A stretch of DNA of 64,000 nucleotides from a virus, in IMG/VR virus record IMGVR_UViG_3300012933_000155, positions 71,079 to 135,078 of that record; one strand, given 5' to 3'. This document shows, piece after piece, positions 14,275 to 26,414 of this stretch. The notes under the pieces were generated by a model. The model searched no databases. It was not told the DNA's origin and saw only the letters and a program-made list of their open reading frames with translations. The stretch's first letter is position 1. Each line of letters opens with the position of its first letter. A program made the translations under genes and the position numbers.

Positions 14275-14299
14275 AAGGGGACTTAGGTCCCCTTATTTT
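14275..14299 (+). terminator. Rho-independent terminator
   Basis: AAGGGGAC-TTAG-GTCCCCTT-ATTTT. Confidence 0.75.
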
Positions 14300-14309
14300 G
14301 CCTATAGTG

Positions 14310-14338
14310 TTGACTTCCATCTAGTAATACTTTATAAT
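14310..14338 (+). promoter_or_regulatory. Sigma70 promoter (leaderless transcript likely)
   Basis: TTGACT-17-TATAAT, with the ATG 6 nt downstream. Confidence 0.7.
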
Positions 14339-15409: not shown

Positions 15410-16893
15410 AAGAATGTAAACTAATTATTAGAGATGAAGTCAACGTAAAAATTGAAGGTCTGGAGCTGGGAGACCGCAAAGCGTTGATGAAGAAGTTTGA
15501 GTATGAGAAGCCTGGTGCAAGATATTTGCCGAGTGTCCGATTAGGTCGCTGGAACGGCAAGATTAGTTATTTCAGTCTAGGAGGTTCAACATACGTCAAC
15601 TTGCTACCTGAGATTCTACCAATCTTAGACCAAGCAGGATATGACATTGAACTAGAAGACTTGCGTGAGTATTCTACTACGTTTAACTTCACCGAATTCA
15701 AAGAAGATAGCTTTGCTGAACATCTATGGCCTGCAAAGCATCCAATGGCAGGTCAGCCTGTTATGATTCGTGACTATCAACTTGATATTGTTAACAACTT
15801 CTTAAAGAACCCACAAGCATTACAAGAAGTAGCGACAGGCGCAGGTAAGACAATTATGACTGCGGCTCTGAGTTATTCAGTACAAGCATACGGTCGTAGT
15901 ATTGTTATCGTCCCTAACAAAGACTTGGTTACACAGACCGAACGTGATTACATTAACGTAGGATTAGATGTTGGTGTGTACTTCGGTGACAGAAAAGACT
16001 TTGGTAAGACACATACGATTTGCACATGGCAAAGTCTTGGCAACATGTTGAAGAAAACAAAAGCAGACGAAGCAGAAGTTTCCATTCAAGACTTTATTGA
16101 GGGTGTAGTGTGCGTTATTGTTGACGAAGTTCACATGGCTAAAGCTGATGTGTTGAAAGAACTATTATCTACTGTAATGTCACACATCCCAATTCGCTGG
16201 GGATTGACTGGAACTATTCCCAAGTCTGATTTTGACTATAAAGCTATCATGGTTTCATTGGGTCCAGTCATCGGACGTTTGTCTGCAAAAGAATTGCAAG
16301 ACAAAGGTGTGTTGGCACAGTGTCACGTGAACATCATTCAGTTACAAGATAAAGTTGAATTTAGTAACTATCAGTCTGAGTTGAAGTACCTACTTGAAGA
16401 TGACAAACGGTTAACAACTATATGCCAACTGATTGAGAAGATTAAAGAGACCGGCAACACGTTGATTCTAGTTGATAGAGTTGGCGCTGGTAAACAAATT
16501 CAAACCAGACTTAGTGAAGCATTCACAAAAGCTAGGTTAGATTATGAGGTAAGTTTCGTATCGGGCGAGACAGGATTAGCAGAAAGGAAAGAACAGTATG
16601 ATGAAGTGGCTACAGCTACTAACAAAGTTATTGTGGCGACTTATGGTGTGGCCGCTGTGGGGATTAATATTCCTAGGATTTTTAATCTGGTTCTTATGGA
16701 ACCCGGAAAGAGCTTTGTCCGAGTTATCCAGTCTATTGGACGCGGTATTAGAAAAGCAGAAGACAAAGACCACGTGCAAATCTGGGACATAACCAGCAGT
16801 TGCAAGTTCGCAAAAAGACACTTGACACAACGCAAGACCTTTTATAAGGATGCAAATTATCCATTCTCGATTGAGAAACTTGACTATAAATGA
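15406..16893 (+). CDS. uvsW: SF2 DNA helicase (UvsW-like)
   Basis: IRDYQ Q-motif, ATGAGKT, IVDEVH, GLTGT, GINIPRI, QSIGRGIR. Confidence 0.92.
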   Translation: MKECKLIIRDEVNVKIEGLELGDRKALMKKFEYEKPGARYLPSVRLGRWNGKISYFSLGGSTYVNLLPEILPILDQAGYDIELEDLREYSTTFNFTEFKEDSFAEHLWPAKHPMAGQPVMIRDYQLDIVNNFLKNPQALQEVATGAGKTIMTAALSYSVQAYGRSIVIVPNKDLVTQTERDYINVGLDVGVYFGDRKDFGKTHTICTWQSLGNMLKKTKADEAEVSIQDFIEGVVCVIVDEVHMAKADVLKELLSTVMSHIPIRWGLTGTIPKSDFDYKAIMVSLGPVIGRLSAKELQDKGVLAQCHVNIIQLQDKVEFSNYQSELKYLLEDDKRLTTICQLIEKIKETGNTLILVDRVGAGKQIQTRLSEAFTKARLDYEVSFVSGETGLAERKEQYDEVATATNKVIVATYGVAAVGINIPRIFNLVLMEPGKSFVRVIQSIGRGIRKAEDKDHVQIWDITSSCKFAKRHLTQRKTFYKDANYPFSIEKLDYK

Positions 16894-16905
16894 TATAATA
16901 ACACT

Positions 16906-17406
16906 ATGCGAATTTTAACATTAGACGATACCTATTACAACTTAGAAACACTACCCGAAGAAGTAGATGATTTGCGCTTTGCTATACTTGATAACTCAAA
17001 CCCACAAAACGTAGACTATCATTATATCCCACTTATCTTCTTAGAGAGTTTCAATTCACCTGCACTTGTTTTGCGAGTAGGTGACAAGACTATTAAGATG
17101 CCAGTAGATTGGCAAATCTTAATCGGTGAACCTGAAATGGGTGACCTAGAAACATTGCCACTAACAAGTATCAATGACAGAGGATTCAAAGCATTTGAGT
17201 TTAACCCGCTCTCAGCATTTAGACCTAGCTTTCAAGATATCGAGATTGTTGATATCTATCACGATGTAACTTGGTATGCACCTCGATTAAAGAATGGGCA
17301 GTTCTTATGCGTACCCATTGATGATACTCCGAAACCTAGATGTATCTATTTTGTTAAAGACATTAGTAGAAATTGTGAAATCGTAGACTATCAACAGGCT
17401 TGGTAA
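16906..17406 (+). CDS. Hypothetical protein with a possible degenerate Hint-like fold
   Basis: Own sigma70 promoter TTGAGA(16871)-17-TATAAT(16894); beta-rich pattern. Confidence 0.65.
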   Translation: MRILTLDDTYYNLETLPEEVDDLRFAILDNSNPQNVDYHYIPLIFLESFNSPALVLRVGDKTIKMPVDWQILIGEPEMGDLETLPLTSINDRGFKAFEFNPLSAFRPSFQDIEIVDIYHDVTWYAPRLKNGQFLCVPIDDTPKPRCIYFVKDISRNCEIVDYQQAW

Positions 17407-18002
17407 TGGCAACAAAGAAACCTGCAACACCTAAAGACGAAAAATTTGAGAAGCAAGACTTCGACTTGTTCGAGGCACTCTCAGCATTGGATCGTAAAGA
17501 TTATACATACTTAGACAACTTAACAGACGAGCAACAACGAAAGTTCGTCCCGTACATGATGACACATTGGATGAGTACTGTTAAAGACAACGGTGGAGTT
17601 CAAGGTTATTATGTGTTGAGTACAGAGTATGCCGCTAACAAACACTTATTCAACGAGCATGTACAGAAACATCCTAAACTACAATGGTTGATGCTGTGCG
17701 CGGCAAGTCCTGGCTTAGGTAAGAAGTTCCATCAATGGATTCCTCACTTGTCTAGCAAAGTAGCAACATTGAAAGAGTCTCCTAAACTCAAAGATGTTAA
17801 AGACTATTACGCAAAGATTTATCCCAAGGCTGCTCCTAGCGACTTAGATATGCTGGCAGAAGTGTTTGTAGACGAACACAAAAAGAAAGTGTATCTTGCA
17901 AAAAGATTCCCCGAATTAAAATTATCCGACATTGAAGTATTAGCACAGACAGTAACAGATGATGACATTAGAGCATACGAAAGAGACCTTGGCAACGACT
18001 AA
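17406..18002 (+). CDS. Clamp loader small subunit (T4 gp62-like), putative
   Basis: FDLFEALSALDRKD...FVPYMMTHWMS...LQWLMLCAASPGLGKKFHQWIP pattern resembles gp62. Confidence 0.55.
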   Translation: MATKKPATPKDEKFEKQDFDLFEALSALDRKDYTYLDNLTDEQQRKFVPYMMTHWMSTVKDNGGVQGYYVLSTEYAANKHLFNEHVQKHPKLQWLMLCAASPGLGKKFHQWIPHLSSKVATLKESPKLKDVKDYYAKIYPKAAPSDLDMLAEVFVDEHKKKVYLAKRFPELKLSDIEVLAQTVTDDDIRAYERDLGND

Positions 18003-18675
18003 GTACACCTGCGAGTTTTGTAATAAAACATTTGCACGTGAGCGTACATTAGTTAGCCATCTTTGTGAGAAGAAACAACGATGGCTTAACAAGGATCATC
18101 CTGGCAACAGAATCGGGTTTCAAACTTGGGTTCAGTTTTACTCTAAACACAGCATGAGTAGGACTAAGAACAAAACGTATGAAGAATTTATTAACAGCCC
18201 GTACTATATTGCGTTTGCCAAGTTCGGTAGTTATTGTGTAGACACTAAGGTGTTGAACATTTCATTCTACGTTGATTGGCTTCTTAAAGAACAATTCAAA
18301 CTAGATTCATGGACGAGTGATACAGTGTACAACAAGTATTTGTGTCATTACTTGCGGCATGAGGATCCATTCGATGCTATCTATCGAGGTGTTGAAAACT
18401 GTTCCGAATTAGCAGAAGCAAATAGTATTCAACCTAATGACGTATTTCGGTACGTTAACGCAAATCGGGTATGTCAGTACATCATAAACGGTAAAATATC
18501 ACCATGGATGTTGTTTCAAAGCGACAGTGGTATCCGTTTTCTAGAGACATTAAATCAGGATCAAGTTACAATAATACTTGATTACATTAGTCCAGAACAA
18601 TGGAAGTTGAAGTTTAACCGAGAGCCAGATGTTACTAGAAAAATACGAGACACCCTCAAAGACGCAGGGTACTAA
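17959..18675 (+). CDS. Hypothetical protein with an N-terminal C2H2/C2HC zinc finger
   Basis: YTCEFCNKTFARERTLVSHLC. Confidence 0.65.
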   Translation: MMTLEHTKETLATTKYTCEFCNKTFARERTLVSHLCEKKQRWLNKDHPGNRIGFQTWVQFYSKHSMSRTKNKTYEEFINSPYYIAFAKFGSYCVDTKVLNISFYVDWLLKEQFKLDSWTSDTVYNKYLCHYLRHEDPFDAIYRGVENCSELAEANSIQPNDVFRYVNANRVCQYIINGKISPWMLFQSDSGIRFLETLNQDQVTIILDYISPEQWKLKFNREPDVTRKIRDTLKDAGY

Positions 18676-18859
18676 AGTCACGCTTGAGTGGCGGCATGGA
18701 CGAGACAATACTGAATCATGGAATGAGATTTGCGCTTGGGTAATCGAGCAGTTTGGAATGCCTGGAACACTTTATACATGGCATCCAACAGAAGATTATA
18801 TGCAGTTTTACTTTCATAGAGAACAGGATGCGATTCACTTTATGTTGAGGTGGGCATGA
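18629..18859 (+). CDS. LRW-array small protein
   Basis: AWVIEQFG...FYFHREQDAIHFMLRWA. Confidence 0.65.
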   Translation: MLLEKYETPSKTQGTKVTLEWRHGRDNTESWNEICAWVIEQFGMPGTLYTWHPTEDYMQFYFHREQDAIHFMLRWA

Positions 18860-19179
18860 ACAAACTACATGTATACCAAGATAACTTGTGCAAGGAGATA
18901 GTAATGACTGCACAAACACAACTATGTACGCTTGGTGTCTATTATGCCCCTTACATGCCAAAGATTATGAAACCTAAATATCAATTCAGTCGTGCTAACT
19001 GGTTCAAAGCAAATTTTGACCATAGAAAATACAATGAGGTACAAGAATGGTGTACTGACAACTTTGGTCCGCAGCCCAGATTTCCTGATGCATGGAGTCG
19101 CTGGGTACACACTTACGAAGACCAGATTTTCTTTAGAGATAGCAAAGATTACGAATGGTTTATGTTACGATGGAGCTAA
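18856..19179 (+). CDS. LRW-array small protein
   Basis: EWCTDNFG...IFFRDSKDYEWFMLRWS. Confidence 0.7.
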   Translation: MNKLHVYQDNLCKEIVMTAQTQLCTLGVYYAPYMPKIMKPKYQFSRANWFKANFDHRKYNEVQEWCTDNFGPQPRFPDAWSRWVHTYEDQIFFRDSKDYEWFMLRWS

Positions 19180-19180
19180 A

Positions 19181-19618
19181 ATGAATTTGAATCACTTAAC
19201 AGATAATGAACTTATCGACCACATCATTCGCTATGATGAAGACCCTGTGCGAGTTCGCCTTGCTACAATCATGCAACGCACTAAAGGTGCAATCATTGAC
19301 GACTTAGAGTATGCGGGTATGGATGATACATTCTGTAACTTTAAAAGCATTGTGAACGGGTGTGAGTACCATCCCGGACAGTATATCAGTCATCTTGAAG
19401 GTGAAATTGAGCACTTGTGGTTTATGTCAGAGCAAGACCAGAAAGAAATCAAGAACCTACAAGCAAGAACTATAATGGACGTCTTTGCTGAGTTAAAGCA
19501 AGAAATCAAGACGGCTGAGTATTCAAAAGAACTAGCAATCAAAGACCGTGCTGCTGCTGAGAAGCGGGAACAAGACATGAAGCACAAACTTGACATGTGG
19601 GCAATCTTGCAACGATGA
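19181..19618 (+). CDS. Hypothetical coiled-coil protein
   Basis: GGAG SD; ATG at 19181. Confidence 0.65.
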   Translation: MNLNHLTDNELIDHIIRYDEDPVRVRLATIMQRTKGAIIDDLEYAGMDDTFCNFKSIVNGCEYHPGQYISHLEGEIEHLWFMSEQDQKEIKNLQARTIMDVFAELKQEIKTAEYSKELAIKDRAAAEKREQDMKHKLDMWAILQR

Positions 19619-19932
19619 TTACTAGCATCTGGTACAACATCGAAGATAATACGCCCACTGTAGAGGGTTATTACCTTGCGTACAAGAAACCGTCGTTAGG
19701 TGATGATAGTGAAGGATACGGTGTATATTATTGGTGTCAGCGAGAAAGATGCTGGAGAGAATCTGCGGCGCTCCATTCATATGGTCTTAGAGTTACTCTT
19801 TGGTCAGAACTACCGGCACATGACCCATATAATTCCACTGACCATTCACCTAGTGTTGCAGAAGTTGATGCTTGGCGTAATGTAGAGGATGCTATTAGTA
19901 AGTTCAACATGATAAAAGAATTGAGTAGATAA
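19615..19932 (+). CDS. Hypothetical protein (DUF551-like W...P...YL pattern)
   Basis: WYNIEDNTPTVEGYYLAY...VTLWSELP. Confidence 0.55.
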   Translation: MITSIWYNIEDNTPTVEGYYLAYKKPSLGDDSEGYGVYYWCQRERCWRESAALHSYGLRVTLWSELPAHDPYNSTDHSPSVAEVDAWRNVEDAISKFNMIKELSR

Positions 19933-20201
19933 TGGAATACTTTTATGGTGGCGGCGGCAACAATCGTCCTGTATTTAATCACAGATTCAAAGTTAAACAG
20001 TGTACTACTGAAATGCACAAGTGGGCAACAGCGTATCCTGAGAAAGGTCCCTTCAGTCGTTGGCACGTTGAGTGGGCTAGTGTCTATGGTACAATGGATA
20101 GACCAAGAGACTTTGACATTGTTCAGTTTGAACACAGCGAGGCAGCTAAAATCTTTAGAATCGCATTTGCCGGCGAGTACGAGGAAGTAGCATGGCTGTA
20201 G
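19932..20201 (+). CDS. LRW-array divergent member
   Basis: VQFEHSEAAKIFRIAF. Confidence 0.6.
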   Translation: MEYFYGGGGNNRPVFNHRFKVKQCTTEMHKWATAYPEKGPFSRWHVEWASVYGTMDRPRDFDIVQFEHSEAAKIFRIAFAGEYEEVAWL

Positions 20202-20428
20202 CTTCAAAGTACGATTATTGGTCGTTGCTGCGAATTCTCTATAAAGAGTATGAGAAACAATATACTGGATACTATGAACCAACGTGGACGGGTAAGAGTG
20301 ATAGCTTTGACAAGTATGTTGAAACCCAGTATGGAATGCAAGTTAGCTTTGTTGATGGGATGATTACACAAGATTTTTCAATTGTAGATGAAGGTAAGTA
20401 TGCGTGGTGCATACTCAAACATAAATGA
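20192..20428 (+). CDS. LRW-array member (IVDE subtype)
   Basis: FSIVDEGKYAWCILKHK. Confidence 0.6.
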   Translation: MAVASKYDYWSLLRILYKEYEKQYTGYYEPTWTGKSDSFDKYVETQYGMQVSFVDGMITQDFSIVDEGKYAWCILKHK

Positions 20429-20868
20429 AATTACGACTTAAAGCCCGAATCAGAAAGTATCTTGCTGACCGCAAGCTGAAAAATAGTGGCTATCGTTCTT
20501 GGCGTGTGTATCGTCATAACCGTGACCCTGATGTTGTGCGTTATGCTGACAAAGTAAGTGACTTCTACAAAAACTACAAATATGTGTATATGTGTGAAGG
20601 TGGCACAGCACATTATGCTTACAGCGTAGTACATGATTATGGTCCAGGTGGATTAGTATTCGGATATGAAGAAATGCGTGATTGGTGTGAAAGTAAATGT
20701 AGATTCAAGTATCGGGTAGACATTCATAGAGGGTTGAAACAAACTGGTCTAGGTATTAACGGTGAAGAATATCCTGATTATTACTTTAACGATATTGGTG
20801 GAAGTGACCTAGTGTTCTTTGCTTTTATGGATGAGCAAGACTATATCATGTTTAGGTTGAGGTGGTGA
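20425..20868 (+). CDS. LRW-array member (long)
   Basis: MRDWCESKC...FFAFMDEQDYIMFRLRW. Confidence 0.7.
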   Translation: MKLRLKARIRKYLADRKLKNSGYRSWRVYRHNRDPDVVRYADKVSDFYKNYKYVYMCEGGTAHYAYSVVHDYGPGGLVFGYEEMRDWCESKCRFKYRVDIHRGLKQTGLGINGEEYPDYYFNDIGGSDLVFFAFMDEQDYIMFRLRW

Positions 20869-21128
20869 TGAAAGAACCTTTTATTATTAGAGAAAAGTTT
20901 CTAGTAGAAGTTGGTAGACCATGGAAAGAGCCTTGGGCTGAGTATTTTCAAAACTTTTATCTTCATTGTCAAGAAATAGCAATAAAGAATAACTGGGTGG
21001 TTGATACAGTAGCAAACACTGAACTAAAGCCACTAGGTGGCAAACTAATCAAAACTAAAACACAAGGTTGGTATCTACGTTGGGATGATGAAAAGTCTCA
21101 TACATTTTTTGTATTGAAGTGGTCATGA
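20868..21128 (+). CDS. LRW-array member
   Basis: YLRWDDEKSHTFFVLKWS. Confidence 0.65.
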   Translation: MKEPFIIREKFLVEVGRPWKEPWAEYFQNFYLHCQEIAIKNNWVVDTVANTELKPLGGKLIKTKTQGWYLRWDDEKSHTFFVLKWS

Positions 21129-21322
21129 AACAATACGGCATAGCAATTGAGAATTGGCCAGCATCTCGTAAAGTAGATGTTAAATGGTGGTTGCTTGAAA
21201 ACTTTGGACCTGAAGACTCTCCTACACAAAAGGGGCGTTGGGGCTGTGCGTATGACTATGGGTTAGACAATATCTACATGAATGAAGATGTTTTTATAAT
21301 GTATCAATTGAGGTGGGGTTGA
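21125..21322 (+). CDS. LRW-array member
   Basis: WWLLENFGP...YMNEDVFIMYQLRWG. Confidence 0.65.
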   Translation: MKQYGIAIENWPASRKVDVKWWLLENFGPEDSPTQKGRWGCAYDYGLDNIYMNEDVFIMYQLRWG

Positions 21323-21519
21323 TGGAAGTCTTTTACGTCACTTGGCAAACTGAAACCCCACATCGTTGGTGTGTAACATGCCCAAGTTTGCCGGCTGAAG
21401 ACCAGTATGAACGAAGAAACTGGTGCTACTCACAAGAAATGAATTTTGTGAATGTAGGCGTAAGATTCTGGTTCGTAGAAGAAAAAGATGTTATAATGTT
21501 CAGATTAAGGTGGGAATAA
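21322..21519 (+). CDS. LRW-array member
   Basis: NWCYSQ...FWFVEEKDVIMFRLRWE. Confidence 0.65.
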   Translation: MEVFYVTWQTETPHRWCVTCPSLPAEDQYERRNWCYSQEMNFVNVGVRFWFVEEKDVIMFRLRWE

Positions 21520-21722
21520 TGGAATATCAAAGATACCCTCAATACACTAGTAACTGGACTAATGTTATTGTAGATCCAGCTTGGCGCGAACCAATCAAAG
21601 GTGAACATATTGCTTGGCTAAAAGCACACGAAGGTGGGTACTATCATCTTCATCGTAATGCCACTGCTGTTAAGTTTGAGCGCAAAGAAGATGCTGAATG
21701 GTTTATATTGAGGTGGCTGTGA
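21519..21722 (+). CDS. LRW-array member
   Basis: AWLKAH...VKFERKEDAEWFILRWL. Confidence 0.65.
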   Translation: MEYQRYPQYTSNWTNVIVDPAWREPIKGEHIAWLKAHEGGYYHLHRNATAVKFERKEDAEWFILRWL

Positions 21723-21967
21723 TGGATTTAGAACTTGTAAAAACTATTGTAGCTAGGCAAGGACAGAACGAGTTTCTGAAAAATCCCATCGTACTGCCAC
21801 CTGAAGCAAAAGTTGTCACCGGTCAAATCAAAGAAGATGCTTACTTGCATTTTCTAGAAACTACATGCGGTGTAGAGGTACTGTTGTCAGAATACCATCA
21901 CGAGATAGTTGGGTACAATGTCATTGATGAAAAGAAGTTTTCTTGGTTTGTATTGAGGTGGAGTTAA
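21722..21967 (+). CDS. LRW-array member (IVDE subtype)
   Basis: YNVIDEKKFSWFVLRWS. Confidence 0.65.
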   Translation: MDLELVKTIVARQGQNEFLKNPIVLPPEAKVVTGQIKEDAYLHFLETTCGVEVLLSEYHHEIVGYNVIDEKKFSWFVLRWS

Positions 21968-22314
21968 TGTTAGAAAAGATAAACAGAATGTTAAGTGTGT
22001 TCGGTGGAAAGGTCCAAGAACAAGCTACTGAAAAGTTTACTAAGCCCGGTGACCCATTTAGCCCATTTAAAGTAGAAAACGGGATGGTTGGGTTCAAGCC
22101 TTACCTAATTGTTGAGAATCAAAACGAAACTGTGTTATACTCTAATCATAAGTGTGTAGCAATTGATGTTAGCCCAAATGTTGAAGAATGGATACTTAAT
22201 CAACCCCCGCACTTGTGGAAGTACGCAGATGATACCTATGATTGTCATTATGCTATGACAAGATTTTTAGTAAATGAAGAATTATTAACTTGGATGACAC
22301 TAAGATGGGCGTGA
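21967..22314 (+). CDS. LRW-array member
   Basis: VEEWILNQ...FLVNEELLTWMTLRWA. Confidence 0.65.
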   Translation: MLEKINRMLSVFGGKVQEQATEKFTKPGDPFSPFKVENGMVGFKPYLIVENQNETVLYSNHKCVAIDVSPNVEEWILNQPPHLWKYADDTYDCHYAMTRFLVNEELLTWMTLRWA

Positions 22315-22610
22315 AACAATTTACGGCTAACTATTCGATGAAAGCTGGTGATAACGACTTAGATACAATTGCAATAGCATACGCAAAGATTATCCAAGAA
22401 GAAATTGACAATGAGATTATGATTGACATGCTGAAAATGAACGGTTGGATAGTTGTAAACCTTGAACGATTCAAAGACATGAAGCATCCGATTGATGTCC
22501 AAGACTGGTGTACTGATAACATAGGTGATGGTAACTGGAAAAACTTAGGGCCTACGTTCTTGTTCCGTGAGAGCAAACATGCTGAGTGGTTTAGTCTACG
22601 ATGGACATGA
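22311..22610 (+). CDS. LRW-array member
   Basis: DWCTDNIG...FLFRESKHAEWFSLRWT; start is GTG 22311 or ATG 22305. Confidence 0.65.
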   Translation: MKQFTANYSMKAGDNDLDTIAIAYAKIIQEEIDNEIMIDMLKMNGWIVVNLERFKDMKHPIDVQDWCTDNIGDGNWKNLGPTFLFRESKHAEWFSLRWT

Positions 22611-22864
22611 CGTTTGGTGAAGGTCGTGTTTATGGCTCACGATATTATACTGTTGAACCTACAATCAGCTGGGATCTAACCGGTGATTGGGGGAATATAA
22701 ATTCATGGTCACAGATGGAAGAATGGTGTATTAGTACATATGGTTCAACCGGAGAGATATGGGGAGACGAACAGCCCGTACTACAACGTTGGTATATGAA
22801 TAATGCAAAGTTTTGGTTCAGAGAGAAAAAAGATTTAGAATGGTTTGTATTGAAATGGAGTTAA
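22607..22864 (+). CDS. LRW-array member
   Basis: EWCISTYG...FWFREKKDLEWFVLKWS. Confidence 0.68.
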   Translation: MTFGEGRVYGSRYYTVEPTISWDLTGDWGNINSWSQMEEWCISTYGSTGEIWGDEQPVLQRWYMNNAKFWFREKKDLEWFVLKWS

Positions 22865-22865
22865 A

Positions 22866-23114
22866 ATGATTAATGTAGAAGTTACACCCGAATTGATTAC
22901 CAACATAACACGTGCAGTACGTGCATGGAAAAGAGACACGGTTCCTTTAGAAGACGAAGAACAACACTTTGATACTTTTTGCAAAGAAGAACATGGCTTA
23001 GATGTTGAGTTCGGACAGAACGGTCACATCGTTGTAGTACTGGGTGCTACCATTGTTGACGAAGAAAAATACATCAACTTCTTACTAAAGTTCGGGAATA
23101 TGCACGATGACTAA
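22866..23114 (+). CDS. LRW-array member (IVDE subtype)
   Basis: TIVDEEKYINFLLKFG. Confidence 0.62.
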   Translation: MINVEVTPELITNITRAVRAWKRDTVPLEDEEQHFDTFCKEEHGLDVEFGQNGHIVVVLGATIVDEEKYINFLLKFGNMHDD

Positions 23115-23400
23115 TGATATGAAAAACGCAGTGAAGCAACGCAAGATACAAGAGTTAGGTAGTTTCAACTACTGGACTGAGAATTACTATGGTAGTAAAA
23201 GGAATATCACTACTATAAGTTGGAAGGGCAAGGGTGAGGTTGATGGCAATGAAATTCGTCAATGGTGTATTGATAGATTTGGTAAGAGTGGTTACCGAGA
23301 AGATATCGAAGATAGCTACTGGGTTGACAATACAGAGTTTGGAGAAATCATGTTATGTAAGGATGAGTTCCTTACAGCGTTTCTATTGAGGTGGACTTGA
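23107..23400 (+). CDS. LRW-array member
   Basis: QWCIDRFG...IMLCKDEFLTAFLLRWT. Confidence 0.65.
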   Translation: MTNDMKNAVKQRKIQELGSFNYWTENYYGSKRNITTISWKGKGEVDGNEIRQWCIDRFGKSGYREDIEDSYWVDNTEFGEIMLCKDEFLTAFLLRWT

Positions 23401-23654
23401 AAATTGATTGGACTAGAAGTCTAGGGTGGAATTTAGATAGAGCAGAAATGGAACGTACTGACATTATCACTGATGGAGCAGATTGCTATCCATGGAAAGA
23501 AACGTTTGTCATATGGCCTCGTAGAAGCATCACGGGTGCTCCCTTGTTTTGGACAAAAGCATATAAGCGTAAGGTTTGGGTAATATGGGGCTCGGGTTTT
23601 CACATGGAACCTGAAGTACAGTATGCTACGGCATTTGATATATTGTCTCTATGA
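23397..23654 (+). CDS. Hypothetical protein
   Basis: TTGA overlap with the upstream stop; Trp-rich. Confidence 0.55.
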   Translation: MKIDWTRSLGWNLDRAEMERTDIITDGADCYPWKETFVIWPRRSITGAPLFWTKAYKRKVWVIWGSGFHMEPEVQYATAFDILSL

Positions 23655-23899
23655 TAACGATAACACTTAAACACGGACTAACCCCAGCTAGTGAGCAATG
23701 GCTTGCGAAGAACATCGGACCACGTATGCACTACATTCATAATTCAATAGGTGGAGAAGGTTGGATAGCAAAACAACACAACGAGCAAGTAATAATGCAT
23801 GACGAAGGTGGGAGTTACACCAGACACCAAAGAGTTTGGAAACTAACACTAGAAGATGAACGTTTTGCTAGTTGGTTTTTAATAAAGTTTCCACAATGA
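23651..23899 (+). CDS. LRW-array member
   Basis: QWLAKNIGP...LTLEDERFASWFLIKFP. Confidence 0.62.
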   Translation: MITITLKHGLTPASEQWLAKNIGPRMHYIHNSIGGEGWIAKQHNEQVIMHDEGGSYTRHQRVWKLTLEDERFASWFLIKFPQ

Positions 23900-24114
23900 A
23901 AGAAATTAAAGCTGAGGGCTGGCGCTCACATCAAGCACTAGAAGTAGTCAGTGCCCTAAAAGAACAAGGTTATGTTATGGGCGTAGACTTTGATTGGGAA
24001 TATCATAAACCCAAACGTGATGACACTACGTATCAGTTAGTGTATAATAGACATACCGTGTTTAGATTCTATAAAGATGAACTAGCAACATGGTTTAGTT
24101 TAAGGTATCTATAA
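23896..24114 (+). CDS. LRW-array member
   Basis: FRFYKDELATWFSLRYL. Confidence 0.62.
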   Translation: MKEIKAEGWRSHQALEVVSALKEQGYVMGVDFDWEYHKPKRDDTTYQLVYNRHTVFRFYKDELATWFSLRYL

Positions 24115-24401
24115 TGGCAATATCAAGTATCGGAAGAAGTACAGGGACATTCGCTCCTTACACATCTATTGCTACTCAGTCGGATCGCACTGAAGTTCGC
24201 CGTTACGATGGAAGCGGTCGCATGGTTCATGTAATTGACCTAGCATACCAAAAAATTAACGAATTAGAATACATCAAATGGTGTCGTAGAAACTTAGGCG
24301 ACAGACATGATGGTTGGGACTTCTGGTTAGTCGGTGGACTCTTGTACATCGAAGTTTGGGGCGAGAAGCAAAAGTTTACCTATGAGATGTGGAAAAATTA
24401 A
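24114..24401 (+). CDS. LRW-array divergent member
   Basis: KWCRRNLG...WDFWL...YIEVWGEKQKFTYEMWKN. Confidence 0.55.
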   Translation: MAISSIGRSTGTFAPYTSIATQSDRTEVRRYDGSGRMVHVIDLAYQKINELEYIKWCRRNLGDRHDGWDFWLVGGLLYIEVWGEKQKFTYEMWKN

Positions 24402-24694
24402 TGAACGAACTAGTAGCAGTAAACGGCATAATTCAATCAGTGAACCAGTACATGAAGATAAGTGACAGGATCATCTTTCACCAAGCACCAGAGGCTGGTG
24501 CAATCATTTCTATCATGTCCGAAGAAGAAAGATTTGAATATAGGGCTGATGGGTCTACTTATGCGTTTCCTTGGCCAGCAAGTGAACGGGTAATGTATAA
24601 ACAGTTCATGGAAGAAGTGTACAAAAACAGAGATAACCCAACAGTTAAAGACCAACTAGAGAAATTGAAAGTGGTGATGGAGTTAGTAAGATGA
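24401..24694 (+). CDS. Hypothetical protein
   Basis: TAATG-coupled ORF. Confidence 0.55.
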   Translation: MNELVAVNGIIQSVNQYMKISDRIIFHQAPEAGAIISIMSEEERFEYRADGSTYAFPWPASERVMYKQFMEEVYKNRDNPTVKDQLEKLKVVMELVR

Positions 24695-24906
24695 ATGTAG
24701 CGAAAGAAAACATGTGGCGTAATTTACAGGGACTAAAACCTGTACAGTCATGGAAATGCAAATTGAATTGGCATAAGTGGACTAATTACGAAGTCGTAGA
24801 ACCTAGGAATGAGTTCAGTAACCGCATGTATGCAGTATGTCATTGTGCAGATTGCGGAATGCCTAGAATTGAACAACCTTTTACAAAGAGTATAAAAAAT
24901 GGCTAA
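24691..24906 (+). CDS. Small Cys/His (Zn-ribbon-like) protein
   Basis: WKCKLNWHKW...CHCADCG. Confidence 0.55.
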   Translation: MNVAKENMWRNLQGLKPVQSWKCKLNWHKWTNYEVVEPRNEFSNRMYAVCHCADCGMPRIEQPFTKSIKNG

Positions 24907-25459
24907 TGATATTATGATTGACATTGAGAGTTTAGACACAACACCTGATTGTGCTATTCTTACAATTGGTGCAGTGCGTTTTGATCCTAGAGGATCAGGT
25001 GTTGTTGAGAAACTAGAATTAAGACCTACACTAGAAGACCAGACAGAGATATATAACAGGAGAATCAGTGATGATACCGTTCGTTGGTGGTCCGAGCAGA
25101 ACCCCGCAGCCATCGAAGAAGCGATGGGAGATTCTGGACGAGTCCCTTTTAAAGAGTGTATGGAGACGCTTTATAAGTTTTGTTGGAATCGCCGTGCTGT
25201 TTGGTCTAATGGTGCACCATTCGACTTGGTCGTTATGGAAAACGCCTGGAGACAAACAAGCGACAAGCCGAATCCTATCCCCTGGGCTTTCTGGTCAATG
25301 CGAGACACGAGAACATTGTGGGAAATCGCAGGTGTTAAACTTAAAGACGGCGGACACGTTACAAGTCACAAAGCCGTAGAAGATGCAGAACGACAAGCCA
25401 TTGTTGTTCAACAAGCATACGTGAAATTAATGAAAGCTGGATTGGCAGACCCACGATGA
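24899..25459 (+). CDS. DEDDh 3'-5' exonuclease (RNase AS/DexA-like)
   Basis: IMIDIESL (ExoI), WSNGAPFD (ExoII), HKAVEDA (ExoIII). Confidence 0.85.
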   Translation: MANDIMIDIESLDTTPDCAILTIGAVRFDPRGSGVVEKLELRPTLEDQTEIYNRRISDDTVRWWSEQNPAAIEEAMGDSGRVPFKECMETLYKFCWNRRAVWSNGAPFDLVVMENAWRQTSDKPNPIPWAFWSMRDTRTLWEIAGVKLKDGGHVTSHKAVEDAERQAIVVQQAYVKLMKAGLADPR

Positions 25460-25833
25460 GTAAGTTAGAAGAAATAAGGGCAAAAGTCGCTGCCGCTATT
25501 GAGGCAGAAAAATTAAAACCTAAGAAACCTAAACCAAAAAAATATACTGACTACCACTGCGTAAATTATAAACTCAGTAATGAATATGATGAATGGCATG
25601 AATGGATGTGGAACCCGACTCATCCAACTAGGGTATATTTTGAAGAAAACGGAAATGGAAGTCTCGTCTGGCCTACTAGCCGACACTTTACTCAAAATGG
25701 AAGACGAGAAGGTAATTATCAATATTTACAATTTAGATTTGACGAATTAGAAGATGCTGAAAAGTTTGCTAAAAAATTCGGCTTGAATGTATCCACAGTG
25801 AGATATAGTAACGGACCTGGGAGTTACTTTTGA
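25456..25833 (+). CDS. Hypothetical protein, distant LRW-family-like C-terminus
   Basis: LQFRFDELEDAEKFAKKFG. Confidence 0.55.
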   Translation: MSKLEEIRAKVAAAIEAEKLKPKKPKPKKYTDYHCVNYKLSNEYDEWHEWMWNPTHPTRVYFEENGNGSLVWPTSRHFTQNGRREGNYQYLQFRFDELEDAEKFAKKFGLNVSTVRYSNGPGSYF

Positions 25834-26414
25834 AATTTCAATCAGATATTGACATTGACTTTGGTAACAGGGGTAATATCCTGCAACACATTAAGCATAT
25901 ACCTGCAGCCATGCGTAATGTAACACCTATTCGTAAACATGCAACAGGTGTTCATGTAGCAGATATACCATACGATGCTATCAATGACATGGCAAACATT
26001 GATTACACAGAAGCAGAAGAACGTGGATATTTTAAGTTAGACTTGTTGAATGTGCATCTCTACAACTTTGTACGTGATGAGCAGCATTTACAAGAGTTGA
26101 TGCAAGAACCTGATTGGGAAATGCTCAAAGATAGAAAGACGGTTGAACGATTAATTCACTTGTCGAATCATTACAACAGCCTTCAGCGTATGCCTGAGCC
26201 GGTAGATACTATTCCTCGTCTTGCTATGTTTCTGGCGGTAATTCGCCCAGCGAAGAAACATCTGATTGGTCTCCCATGGGTCGATGTGGCGAAAAGTGTC
26301 TGGGAAAAAGAATCTGACGACTATCATTTTAAGAAGTCGCACAGTGTTGCCTATGCAAACCTTGTTGTTGTTCATATGAATTTGTTAAAACAAGGTATTA
26401 TGACAGACGTTTGA
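25830..26414 (+). CDS. dnaE: Minimal DNA polymerase III alpha (DnaE) catalytic fragment, C-part
   Basis: SDIDIDF (DxD), KHATGVHV, GYFKLDLL (third Asp), LAVIRPA, HFKKSHSVAYA; TTG start overlapping the upstream TGA. Confidence 0.85.
   Translation: MKFQSDIDIDFGNRGNILQHIKHIPAAMRNVTPIRKHATGVHVADIPYDAINDMANIDYTEAEERGYFKLDLLNVHLYNFVRDEQHLQELMQEPDWEMLKDRKTVERLIHLSNHYNSLQRMPEPVDTIPRLAMFLAVIRPAKKHLIGLPWVDVAKSVWEKESDDYHFKKSHSVAYANLVVVHMNLLKQGIMTDV

Follow-up and report, generated by a model that had tools for sequence, protein, structure and literature searches.

Hundreds of the small genes in jumbo phages have no known function, and in early regions such as the host-takeover module of SPO1, found in large virulent phages, the small genes are mostly unrelated to one another. 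In the hyperplastic regions of T4-type phages, conserved promoter/stem-loop (PeSL) cassettes mediate gene shuffling (PMC2839356, PMC4122927), and tandem multigene arrays reported from jumbo phages consist of highly similar copies, which implies that they duplicated recently (PMC13282480). Here we analyzed a tandem array of small paralogous genes in a 64 kb stretch of viral DNA (positions 71,079 to 135,078 of IMG/VR record IMGVR_UViG_3300012933_000155; hereafter the window), which forms the 3' part of a 135 kb viral contig. An earlier interpretation made from the letters alone (the sequence-only reading) had described about 18 paralogues here and proposed an expanded effector family under diversifying selection. 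We favor, with a probability of roughly 45%, an account in which these genes encode an old family of small non-enzymatic proteins (65-147 amino acids, aa) that act as target-specific protein-binding modules early in infection, with a C-terminal motif that is dual-coded and a gene junction that serves as the crossover point for exchangeable cassettes.

A terminal L-R/K-W followed by zero or one residue closes 12 stop-to-stop open reading frames (ORFs) on the + strand between 18611 and 23400, and closes 0 of 529 other window ORFs of at least 40 aa and 0 of about 1,040 others in the 135 kb contig, counting both strands. When hidden Markov models (HMMs) were built in leave-one-out fashion with the last 6 residues cut, five to six members still ranked directly behind the other seeds (E 3e-6 to 0.015), so the W-C-x-x-x-F-G core is homologous too, and not the tail alone. 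Using a family profile made from metagenome relatives only, with zero window sequences, hhalign gave probabilities of 85-100% for F1-F8 and F10-F12, with F9 borderline at 18% (P 1e-3). The shared skeleton and ending noted from the letters are therefore supported as homology. A separate IVDE subtype, which had been placed at 20192, 21722 and 22866, was also recovered: in profile-profile comparison IVDE-a matched the F8 group at 97% (E 3e-11) and IVDE-c matched IVDE-a at 82% (E 1e-5), and P, G, D, K and L are invariant in the alignment of F8, IVDE-a and IVDE-c.

On this evidence we count 14 demonstrable members, the 12 motif ORFs plus IVDE-a and IVDE-c (Table 1). Five other genes (d1, d2, d3, x125 and x89) reached P 0.003-0.03, which is not significant, with all negative controls scoring worse (0.06-0.4), and they matched nothing above cut-off in the Pfam, PHROGs and NCBIfam libraries. 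The array itself is thus confirmed, while the count of about 18 is not. In addition, six genes in the span are non-members (19181-19618, 19615-19932, 23391-23654, 24401-24694, 24691-24906 and the Rv2179c-like exonuclease at 24899-25459).

The members share the consensus W-C-x-x-x-F-G ... R-W ... F-x-F-x-x-x-x-D-x-x-x-F-x-L-R-W, in which W, F, L and W are near-invariant; conservation peaks in the helix W-F-x-L-R-W. Positions that hardly vary are nearly always aromatic or aliphatic, with no catalytic-looking invariant polar residues. Paralogues in the window are 16-32% identical, their tryptophan content is 5-10% compared to 1.1%, and the isoelectric point (pI) is 4.6-5.4 in eight of the 12 members and basic (8.4-9.1) in three. 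Searching the family profile against 1.84 billion representatives returned 1,414 clusters (50% identity) at E<=1e-3, and the 150 matches listed from these were all 48-157 aa long, had the domain at the C-terminus in every case and included none with a name.

Scans of the curated libraries Pfam-A, PHROGs v4 and NCBIfam 20 agreed with the earlier statement that the family could not be assigned to a named function. Pfam and PHROGs gave no match for 10 window members, NCBIfam matched 0 of 27 family sequences, and the best E for the family profile against PDB sequences was 0.36. Among 62 diverse relatives, Pfam recognized only Gp23, in the N-terminal extension of two of them, and one chance match. 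No longer protein fusing the domain to a known domain was found, in a search that gives weak evidence on this point, and the literature yielded no description of the family. Neither megablast of the array nor tblastn of F2 found any match in 50,697 phage records, with no nucleotide match to cultured phages, so the family became visible in cultured phages only by profile search: the Sinorhizobium phage Phosso has 14 matches (best 8e-10) scattered round its genome, and Atu_ph07 and PA5oct (EST35_0247) have one weak match each, all annotated as 'hypothetical protein'. These genes thus represent one large family of jumbo-phage small genes that is absent from curated libraries, present in cultured Phosso and weakly so in PA5oct. 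Two annotations of another viral locus, L001, were set aside. A weak DUF7205 flag on a neighboring gene was not reproduced. P0042 (L001:10001-10402) and other F11-type relatives of 130-140 aa carry an N-terminal extension of ~50 residues with a Walker A-like 'ITGRNSGKS'; an origin of this stretch in 134-aa relatives from the Walker A of terminase was dropped, with no Pfam or PHROGs match.

AlphaFold models were obtained for F11 and F8, the two most dissimilar confirmed subtypes. The F11 model (predicted local distance difference test score, pLDDT, 84.7) has strands at residues 2-8 and 11-17 (hairpin 2-17), a helix at 34-45, strands at 62-64 and 69-71 (hairpin 62-71) and a helix at 74-84, and in the F8 model (pLDDT 89.1) helices span 3-18 and 36-47, two strands follow at 51-55 and 62-67, and a last helix covers 70-80. 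Both models contain a helix / hairpin / helix core and differ in their N-terminal elements, so the concern that members might fold differently does not apply to the core of these two subtypes. Together with the near-invariant W, F, L and W, the shared core upholds the proposal of an expanded family with a conserved scaffold and a paralogue-specific remainder. The predicted module of ~45-60 residues would begin with a helix that ends in W-C-x-x-x-F-G, continue through a two-stranded hairpin (R-W-x ... F-x-F) and close with a C-terminal helix (D-x-x-W-F-x-L-R/K-W). Its conserved aromatics probably form the core, and each paralogue has an N-terminal extension and loops of its own, which its orthologues conserve.

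Structure searches returned few relatives. Foldseek against the PDB gave a best E of 1.3, and a wide VIA-align search gave best Z scores of 5.2 (F11) and 3.7 (F8), inside the tool's stated background. The only significant matches were uncharacterized proteins of uncultured phages (BFVD E 7e-5, template-modelling (TM) score 0.72), such as UniProt A0A6J5L6V8 and A0A6J5KVW6 from uncultured freshwater Caudovirales. Sandwiches like DCoH / pterin-4a-carbinolamine dehydratase (1uso, 2ebb, 4low), which are small adaptor-type binders, have the same beta-beta-alpha-beta-beta-alpha order as the F11 model. However, at Z 4.4-4.8 and 2-5% identity they score no better than many unrelated two-layer alpha/beta folds, and the F8 subtype is without the first hairpin; the resemblance gives no evidence of homology and was not adopted. 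The PDB and BFVD searches likewise found no characterized anti-defence inhibitor above background, and the Z of 3.1 for AcrIIA26 is noise.

To place the array in context, we compared the window with its syntenic relatives L004 and L006 and with eleven further viral loci, 14 loci in all, which carry 2-13 clustered, co-directional copies each. The L004 array lies between a helicase and an exonuclease/primase/DnaB group, as in the window; L006 starts inside its array, so only the downstream anchors are visible; and an orthologue of one array gene lies in a relative on a 354 kb contig. All 99 members examined (99/99) were closest to a gene of another phage, at a median of 84% identity, and never to an array neighbor; within a phage, the best matches reached 20-40 bits and covered short stretches. 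It follows that the paralogues are of old origin and that each has been maintained individually.

The nonsynonymous-to-synonymous ratio (pN/pS), a gene-wide measure that is a coarse guide here because synonymous divergence (dS) is often saturated, was 0.04-0.5 across every pairing of a window array gene with its orthologue in L004 or L006, similar to flanking core and replication genes. Identity to the L004 orthologue is 87-97% for F3, F5, F7, F8 and F9, compared to 82% for the helicase and 78% for DnaB. With such ratios, and with several members more conserved than helicase and DnaB, gene-level diversifying selection as proposed by the sequence-only reading is unsupported, and a recent lineage-specific expansion driven by an arms race is rejected by the same ratios and by the 99/99 nearest relatives in other phages. 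The hypervariability reported for N-termini and loops is seen when paralogues are compared; among orthologues these regions are conserved within each set, which points to specialized, maintained functions. Variation between phages consists of whole-gene gain, loss and shuffling and not of rapid sequence change.

The gene junctions explain how the motif is written in DNA. Nearly all are overlaps of 1-4 nt, in the form ATGA or TAATG/TGATG, and for 73 of 87 distinct members from the 14 loci the following ATG lies across or directly beside the stop. The motif Arg is AGG in 47 of 72 cases (65%), whereas AGG accounts for 8% of Arg codons in long ORFs and for 7% when the same genes are counted without their motif, and the motif Leu is TTG in 65%, compared to a background of 28%. 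TTG-AGG-TGG includes a GAGGTG Shine-Dalgarno (SD) sequence ~5 nt before the overlapping next start, and each gene thus carries its neighbor's ribosome-binding site. After TTGAGGTGG junctions, the predicted energy of anti-SD pairing is about -10 kcal/mol; it averages -7.6 kcal/mol over junctions in the array stretch, compared to -4.2 over the other tight junctions of the contig.

This arrangement could mean that the shared ending arises only because a conserved ribosome-binding site and the stop/start overlap are translated in the upstream frame, and that the ORFs are not a protein family at all. TTGAGGTGG followed by ATGA does force ...L-R-W-x-stop in that frame, and the motif shows strong enrichment of AGG and TTG. 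However, L-R-W is kept where its Arg codon is CGA, AGA or CGT and the SD is weak, and it is also kept internally, 11-12 residues from the end, in L001 9530-9751 and in contig 67954-68229 (...YFYFEDSGEAMMYELRW followed by an 11-residue tail). Homology also reaches 40-60 residues upstream of the motif, the two models share a fold, and the other tight junctions of the contig yield no such motif. An SD artefact alone is effectively refuted by these codon, internal-motif, homology and fold results, and we consider it almost certainly wrong. Since L-R-W persists with a weak SD and at internal positions, the protein constraint is primary and the synonymous codons were recruited for the SD; L-R-W would be retained for the protein, with TTG-AGG-TGG selected among the ways to encode it. 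The gene at contig 67954-68229 is itself an isolated extra member (E 0.0018), located 3.1 kb upstream of the window start and outside the array.

Tight coupling also raises the idea that members assemble with each other or dock on a common partner through the C-terminal helix, with translational coupling matching their amounts. Stop/start overlaps are near-universal and their built-in SDs unusually strong, and the W-F-x-L-R-W helix is the element conserved above all others. A fixed complex would not tolerate the differences in copy number and membership seen between close relatives, though, and conserved residues that are mostly hydrophobic are more simply explained as the core of a domain, which makes this arrangement improbable.

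Comparison with L004 also revealed exchange of individual genes. F8, x87 and x105 are located elsewhere in L004, whose array has three extra members. Relative to L004, dS is 0.2-0.43 for F3, F5, F7, F8 and F9, which fall within window positions 20425-22314, and 1-2 for helicase, primase and DnaB, and the low-dS genes are interleaved with genes that have high dS or are absent. This uneven divergence indicates that single array genes were probably exchanged recently between otherwise well-diverged lineages. The high-identity blocks (88-92.5% at the nucleotide level) are one gene each. Their starts lie 2-43 nt ahead of the ATG, within or at the conserved tail of the upstream gene, and their ends 1-5 nt past the gene's own stop. 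Junctions of non-orthologous members are 80-86% identical over 42-49 nt. Judging from these breakpoints, the conserved 40-50 nt junction is a likely crossover point that could move whole genes as cassettes between related phages. Separately, a gene for a 393-aa ATP-grasp protein (GARS_A-like) sits in the middle of the L004 array (L004:6004-7185) and is absent from that of the window.

Exchange of this kind might also be expected of semi-selfish cassettes that persist by recombining at the conserved junction with little benefit to the phage. Single-gene exchange with breakpoints at that junction, blocks with dS 0.2-0.43 in a backbone of 1-2, and presence or absence that varies between loci would all fit. 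Purifying selection, on the other hand, acts over the whole length of each paralogue, including its specific N-terminus, no nuclease or other mobility function accompanies the genes, and no recent within-genome duplicates were found among the 99 members, so that we view selfish persistence as highly improbable.

A subset of relatives carries a segment resembling the major capsid protein. In P0229 (L004:7625-8008), residues 15-70 match positions 2-57 of the Pfam Gp23 model (E 2e-12, 47.5 bits compared to a cut-off of 24.4 bits), a fragment of ~55 of 376 model positions; the protein also matches phrog_138 (major head protein) and aligns to T4 gp23 residues 95-131 (E 1e-8). P0217, P0218 and P0227, which like P0229 are mutually divergent members, have N-termini with the same ...GVQPM segment, and a nearby ESM-Atlas cluster has a Gp23 Pfam match on 13% of its 113 members. 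In the window, residues 3-34 of F2 (18856-18960) weakly resemble T4 gp23 residues 420-454 (GVYYAPYM compared to GIYYAPYV; pairwise E 0.008), with no match of F2 to Pfam Gp23. Pfam Gp23 and tblastn of T4 gp23 found no capsid gene on the contig itself. The GVQPM segment probably corresponds to the Gol region, at roughly T4 gp23 residues 93-122. The Lit protease is known to respond to Gol, a short peptide of T4 Gp23, as its trigger (PMC9712102; PMC8829019).

These matches suggest that the family could act in capsid assembly or in capsid-sensing host immunity, with the scaffold displaying brief stretches copied from the major capsid protein of the phage itself, to serve as a chaperone or regulator of capsid folding or as a decoy for peptide-recognizing defence systems. 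Its appeal lies in the recurrence of the segment at the start of four mutually divergent members and in the neighboring cluster, in the Lit precedent, and in the weak likeness of F2 to a second part of gp23. Yet the segment occurs in a small minority of members and has decayed to a remnant in the window, the contig provides no gp23-like gene for comparison, the equation with Gol is tentative, and a fragment captured by recombination could be an accident that persisted, so we regard a capsid-related role as quite unlikely. More doubtful again is an extended form of the idea, in which the module would be a display scaffold bearing grafted short copies of the phage's conserved, immune-visible protein segments such as GVQPM, made early as decoys or sponges that pre-empt capsid-sensing abortive infection, and the array an exchangeable library of binders and decoys moved as ready-to-translate cassettes via the conserved junction. 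Even so, the recurrent capsid-peptide fusion is one concrete, testable functional lead.

The genomic setting bears on when and where the family acts. The array resides in a freshwater jumbo myovirus, and the tail sheath of the contig shares 42-46% identity with its counterparts in the jumbo myoviruses PA5oct, Atu_ph07 and Phosso. It forms one co-directional run without intergenic space inside a replication-gene block, with a DEAD-type helicase and two conserved unknowns on its 5' side and the Rv2179c-like exonuclease, a DNA-polymerase piece, primase and DnaB on its 3' side. A strong sigma-70-like promoter candidate lies at 16871-16899, upstream of a run of co-directional genes (17400-26414) that includes the array; no convincing terminator was found within this run and no recurrent promoter/terminator pair inside the array, which is probably transcribed from a host-type promoter.

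We therefore favor binding modules made early with the replication genes, because the proteins are small, without catalytic-looking conserved polar residues, mostly acidic and Trp-rich, and because a promoter-like site lies upstream. Each paralogue would be a target-specific protein-binding module for host takeover or counter-defence, and neither an enzyme nor a part of the virion. Several points weigh against this account. The searches yielded no characterized homologue, and no resemblance to a known anti-defence or host-takeover protein emerged. Strong purifying selection and the very high conservation of some members would fit a housekeeping role in replication or assembly equally well, with pN/pS made coarse by saturated dS for many gene pairs. 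Early expression depends on one consensus promoter match, and selection that removes gene-breaking rearrangements would produce part of the breakpoint pattern anyway.

A specific form of the housekeeping possibility would make the proteins accessory to DNA replication or transcription of the phage itself, as small regulators that bind nucleic acid or the replisome and stay beside the helicase, exonuclease, polymerase pieces, primase and DnaB with which they would cooperate. In the window, L004 and L006 alike, the array is embedded among replication genes, which agrees with this, as do strong purifying selection, the three basic members and a weak likeness of fold (Z 4-5) to alpha/beta sandwiches of the KH, eIF1 and EF-G domain IV type. 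Most members are acidic, however, no fold match rises above background, the Phosso members are scattered in its genome, and copies that range from 2 to 13 with membership shifting between close relatives would be unusual for replisome parts. On balance we find this role unlikely and retain target-specific binding as the working interpretation. The fold, the subfamily structure and the conservation of individual members provide a tractable candidate set for host-takeover and counter-defence screens.

Other features of the region are included in Table 1 or noted here. A perfect 8-bp bidirectional terminator-like hairpin (14275-14294) is directly followed by another sigma-70-like promoter (14310-14338, 11/12), ahead of a 354-aa gene and the helicase. 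Downstream of the array, a 194-aa ORF (25830-26414) matches phrog_11778 (DNA polymerase) over its full length. It is conserved at the syntenic position in both L004 and L006, and it looks like a polymerase piece that is encoded on its own. GC skew is 0.23-0.245 at window positions 20000-24000 and at most 0.11 in the remainder, which probably reflects the Trp/Glu/Gly-rich coding of the family.

Table 1. Array members, candidate members and adjacent features, in window coordinates.
Feature	Position	Strand	Description	Evidence or remark
Promoter candidate	16871..16899	+	sigma-70-like; TTGAGA, 17 nt spacer with TG, TATAAT	11/12; consensus match only
F1	18629..18859	+	76 aa; ends FMLRWA	hhalign 97%
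F2	18856..19179	+	107 aa; ends FMLRWS	hhalign 99%; N-terminal remnant NLCKEIV of relatives' capsid-like segment
Three interspersed genes	19181..20201	+	145, 105 and 89 aa	no demonstrable family signal; without Pfam/PHROG match
IVDE-a	20192..20428	+	F8 subfamily; ends CILKHK (without LRW)	97%, E 3e-11 vs F8 group
F3	20425..20868	+	147 aa; long basic N-terminal extension; ends FRLRW	hhalign 97%; L004 orthologue 90% identical
F4	20868..21128	+	86 aa; ends FVLKWS	hhalign 85%
F5	21125..21322	+	65 aa (minimal form); ends YQLRWG	hhalign 87%; orthologue 97% identical
F6	21322..21519	+	65 aa; ends FRLRWE	hhalign 96%; no clear orthologue in L004/L006
F7	21519..21722	+	67 aa; ends FILRWL	hhalign 91%; orthologue 97% identical
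F8	21722..21967	+	IVDE subtype; 81 aa; ends FVLRWS	hhalign 92%; modelled
F9	21967..22314	+	115 aa; ends MTLRWA	member by motif; profile borderline (E 4e-4; hhalign 18%, P 1e-3)
F10	22305..22610	+	101 aa; ends FSLRWT	hhalign 97%; Arg is CGA, giving a weak following SD
F11	22607..22864	+	85 aa; ends FVLKWS	hhalign 100%; modelled
IVDE-c	22866..23114	+	F8 subfamily; ends FLLKFGNMHDD	82% vs IVDE-a
F12	23107..23400	+	97 aa; ends FLLRWT	hhalign 96%
Interspersed non-member	23391..23654	+	87 aa	no family match
d1	23651-23899	+	possible very divergent member; ends FLIKFPQ	not statistically demonstrable
d2	23896-24114	+	possible very divergent member; ends FSLRYL	not statistically demonstrable
d3	24114-24401	+	possible very divergent member; ends YEMWKN	not statistically demonstrable
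Non-members at 3' side of array	24401..25459	+	97 and 71 aa, then exonuclease	
DEDD-type exonuclease	24899-25459	+	non-member	phrog_255; Rv2179c-like in relatives
x125	25456..25833	+	possible divergent member; internal FRFDELEDAEKFAKKF	P 0.012; no orthologue in L004/L006

Set beside described systems, the array shares features with several of them. Proteins from uncultured freshwater Caudovirales and from Phosso, Atu_ph07 and PA5oct belong to the same family by structure or profile, although the Phosso copies are scattered and those of the window lie in one array. As in the jumbo-phage arrays reported previously (PMC13282480), many genes stand in tandem in a jumbo phage, but here the paralogues are 16-32% identical, each is closer to genes of other phages, and they are under purifying selection. 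Modules of the SPO1 type resemble the array in lining up many small genes that have strong ribosome-binding sites, with an apparent host-type promoter and no enzymatic signatures; they differ in that the array genes are related to each other.

The closest parallel is with the hyperplastic regions of T4-type phages. There, as in this T4-related myovirus, variable small genes of unknown function lie between conserved core genes, and whole genes are gained, lost and swapped at short conserved boundary sequences. The array genes are, in contrast to those of T4 hyperplastic regions, paralogues of one family. Because they overlap (ATGA/TAATG) and leave no intergenic space, no PeSL element is encountered at the array boundaries; instead of an intergenic promoter/stem-loop, the boundary is a coding C-terminal motif together with an SD. 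One short sequence thus has three uses, as a structural protein motif, as the ribosome-binding site of the next gene and probably as a recombination point for translation-ready cassettes, and if the last is true, the junction would be the coding-sequence counterpart of T4-type PeSL cassettes.

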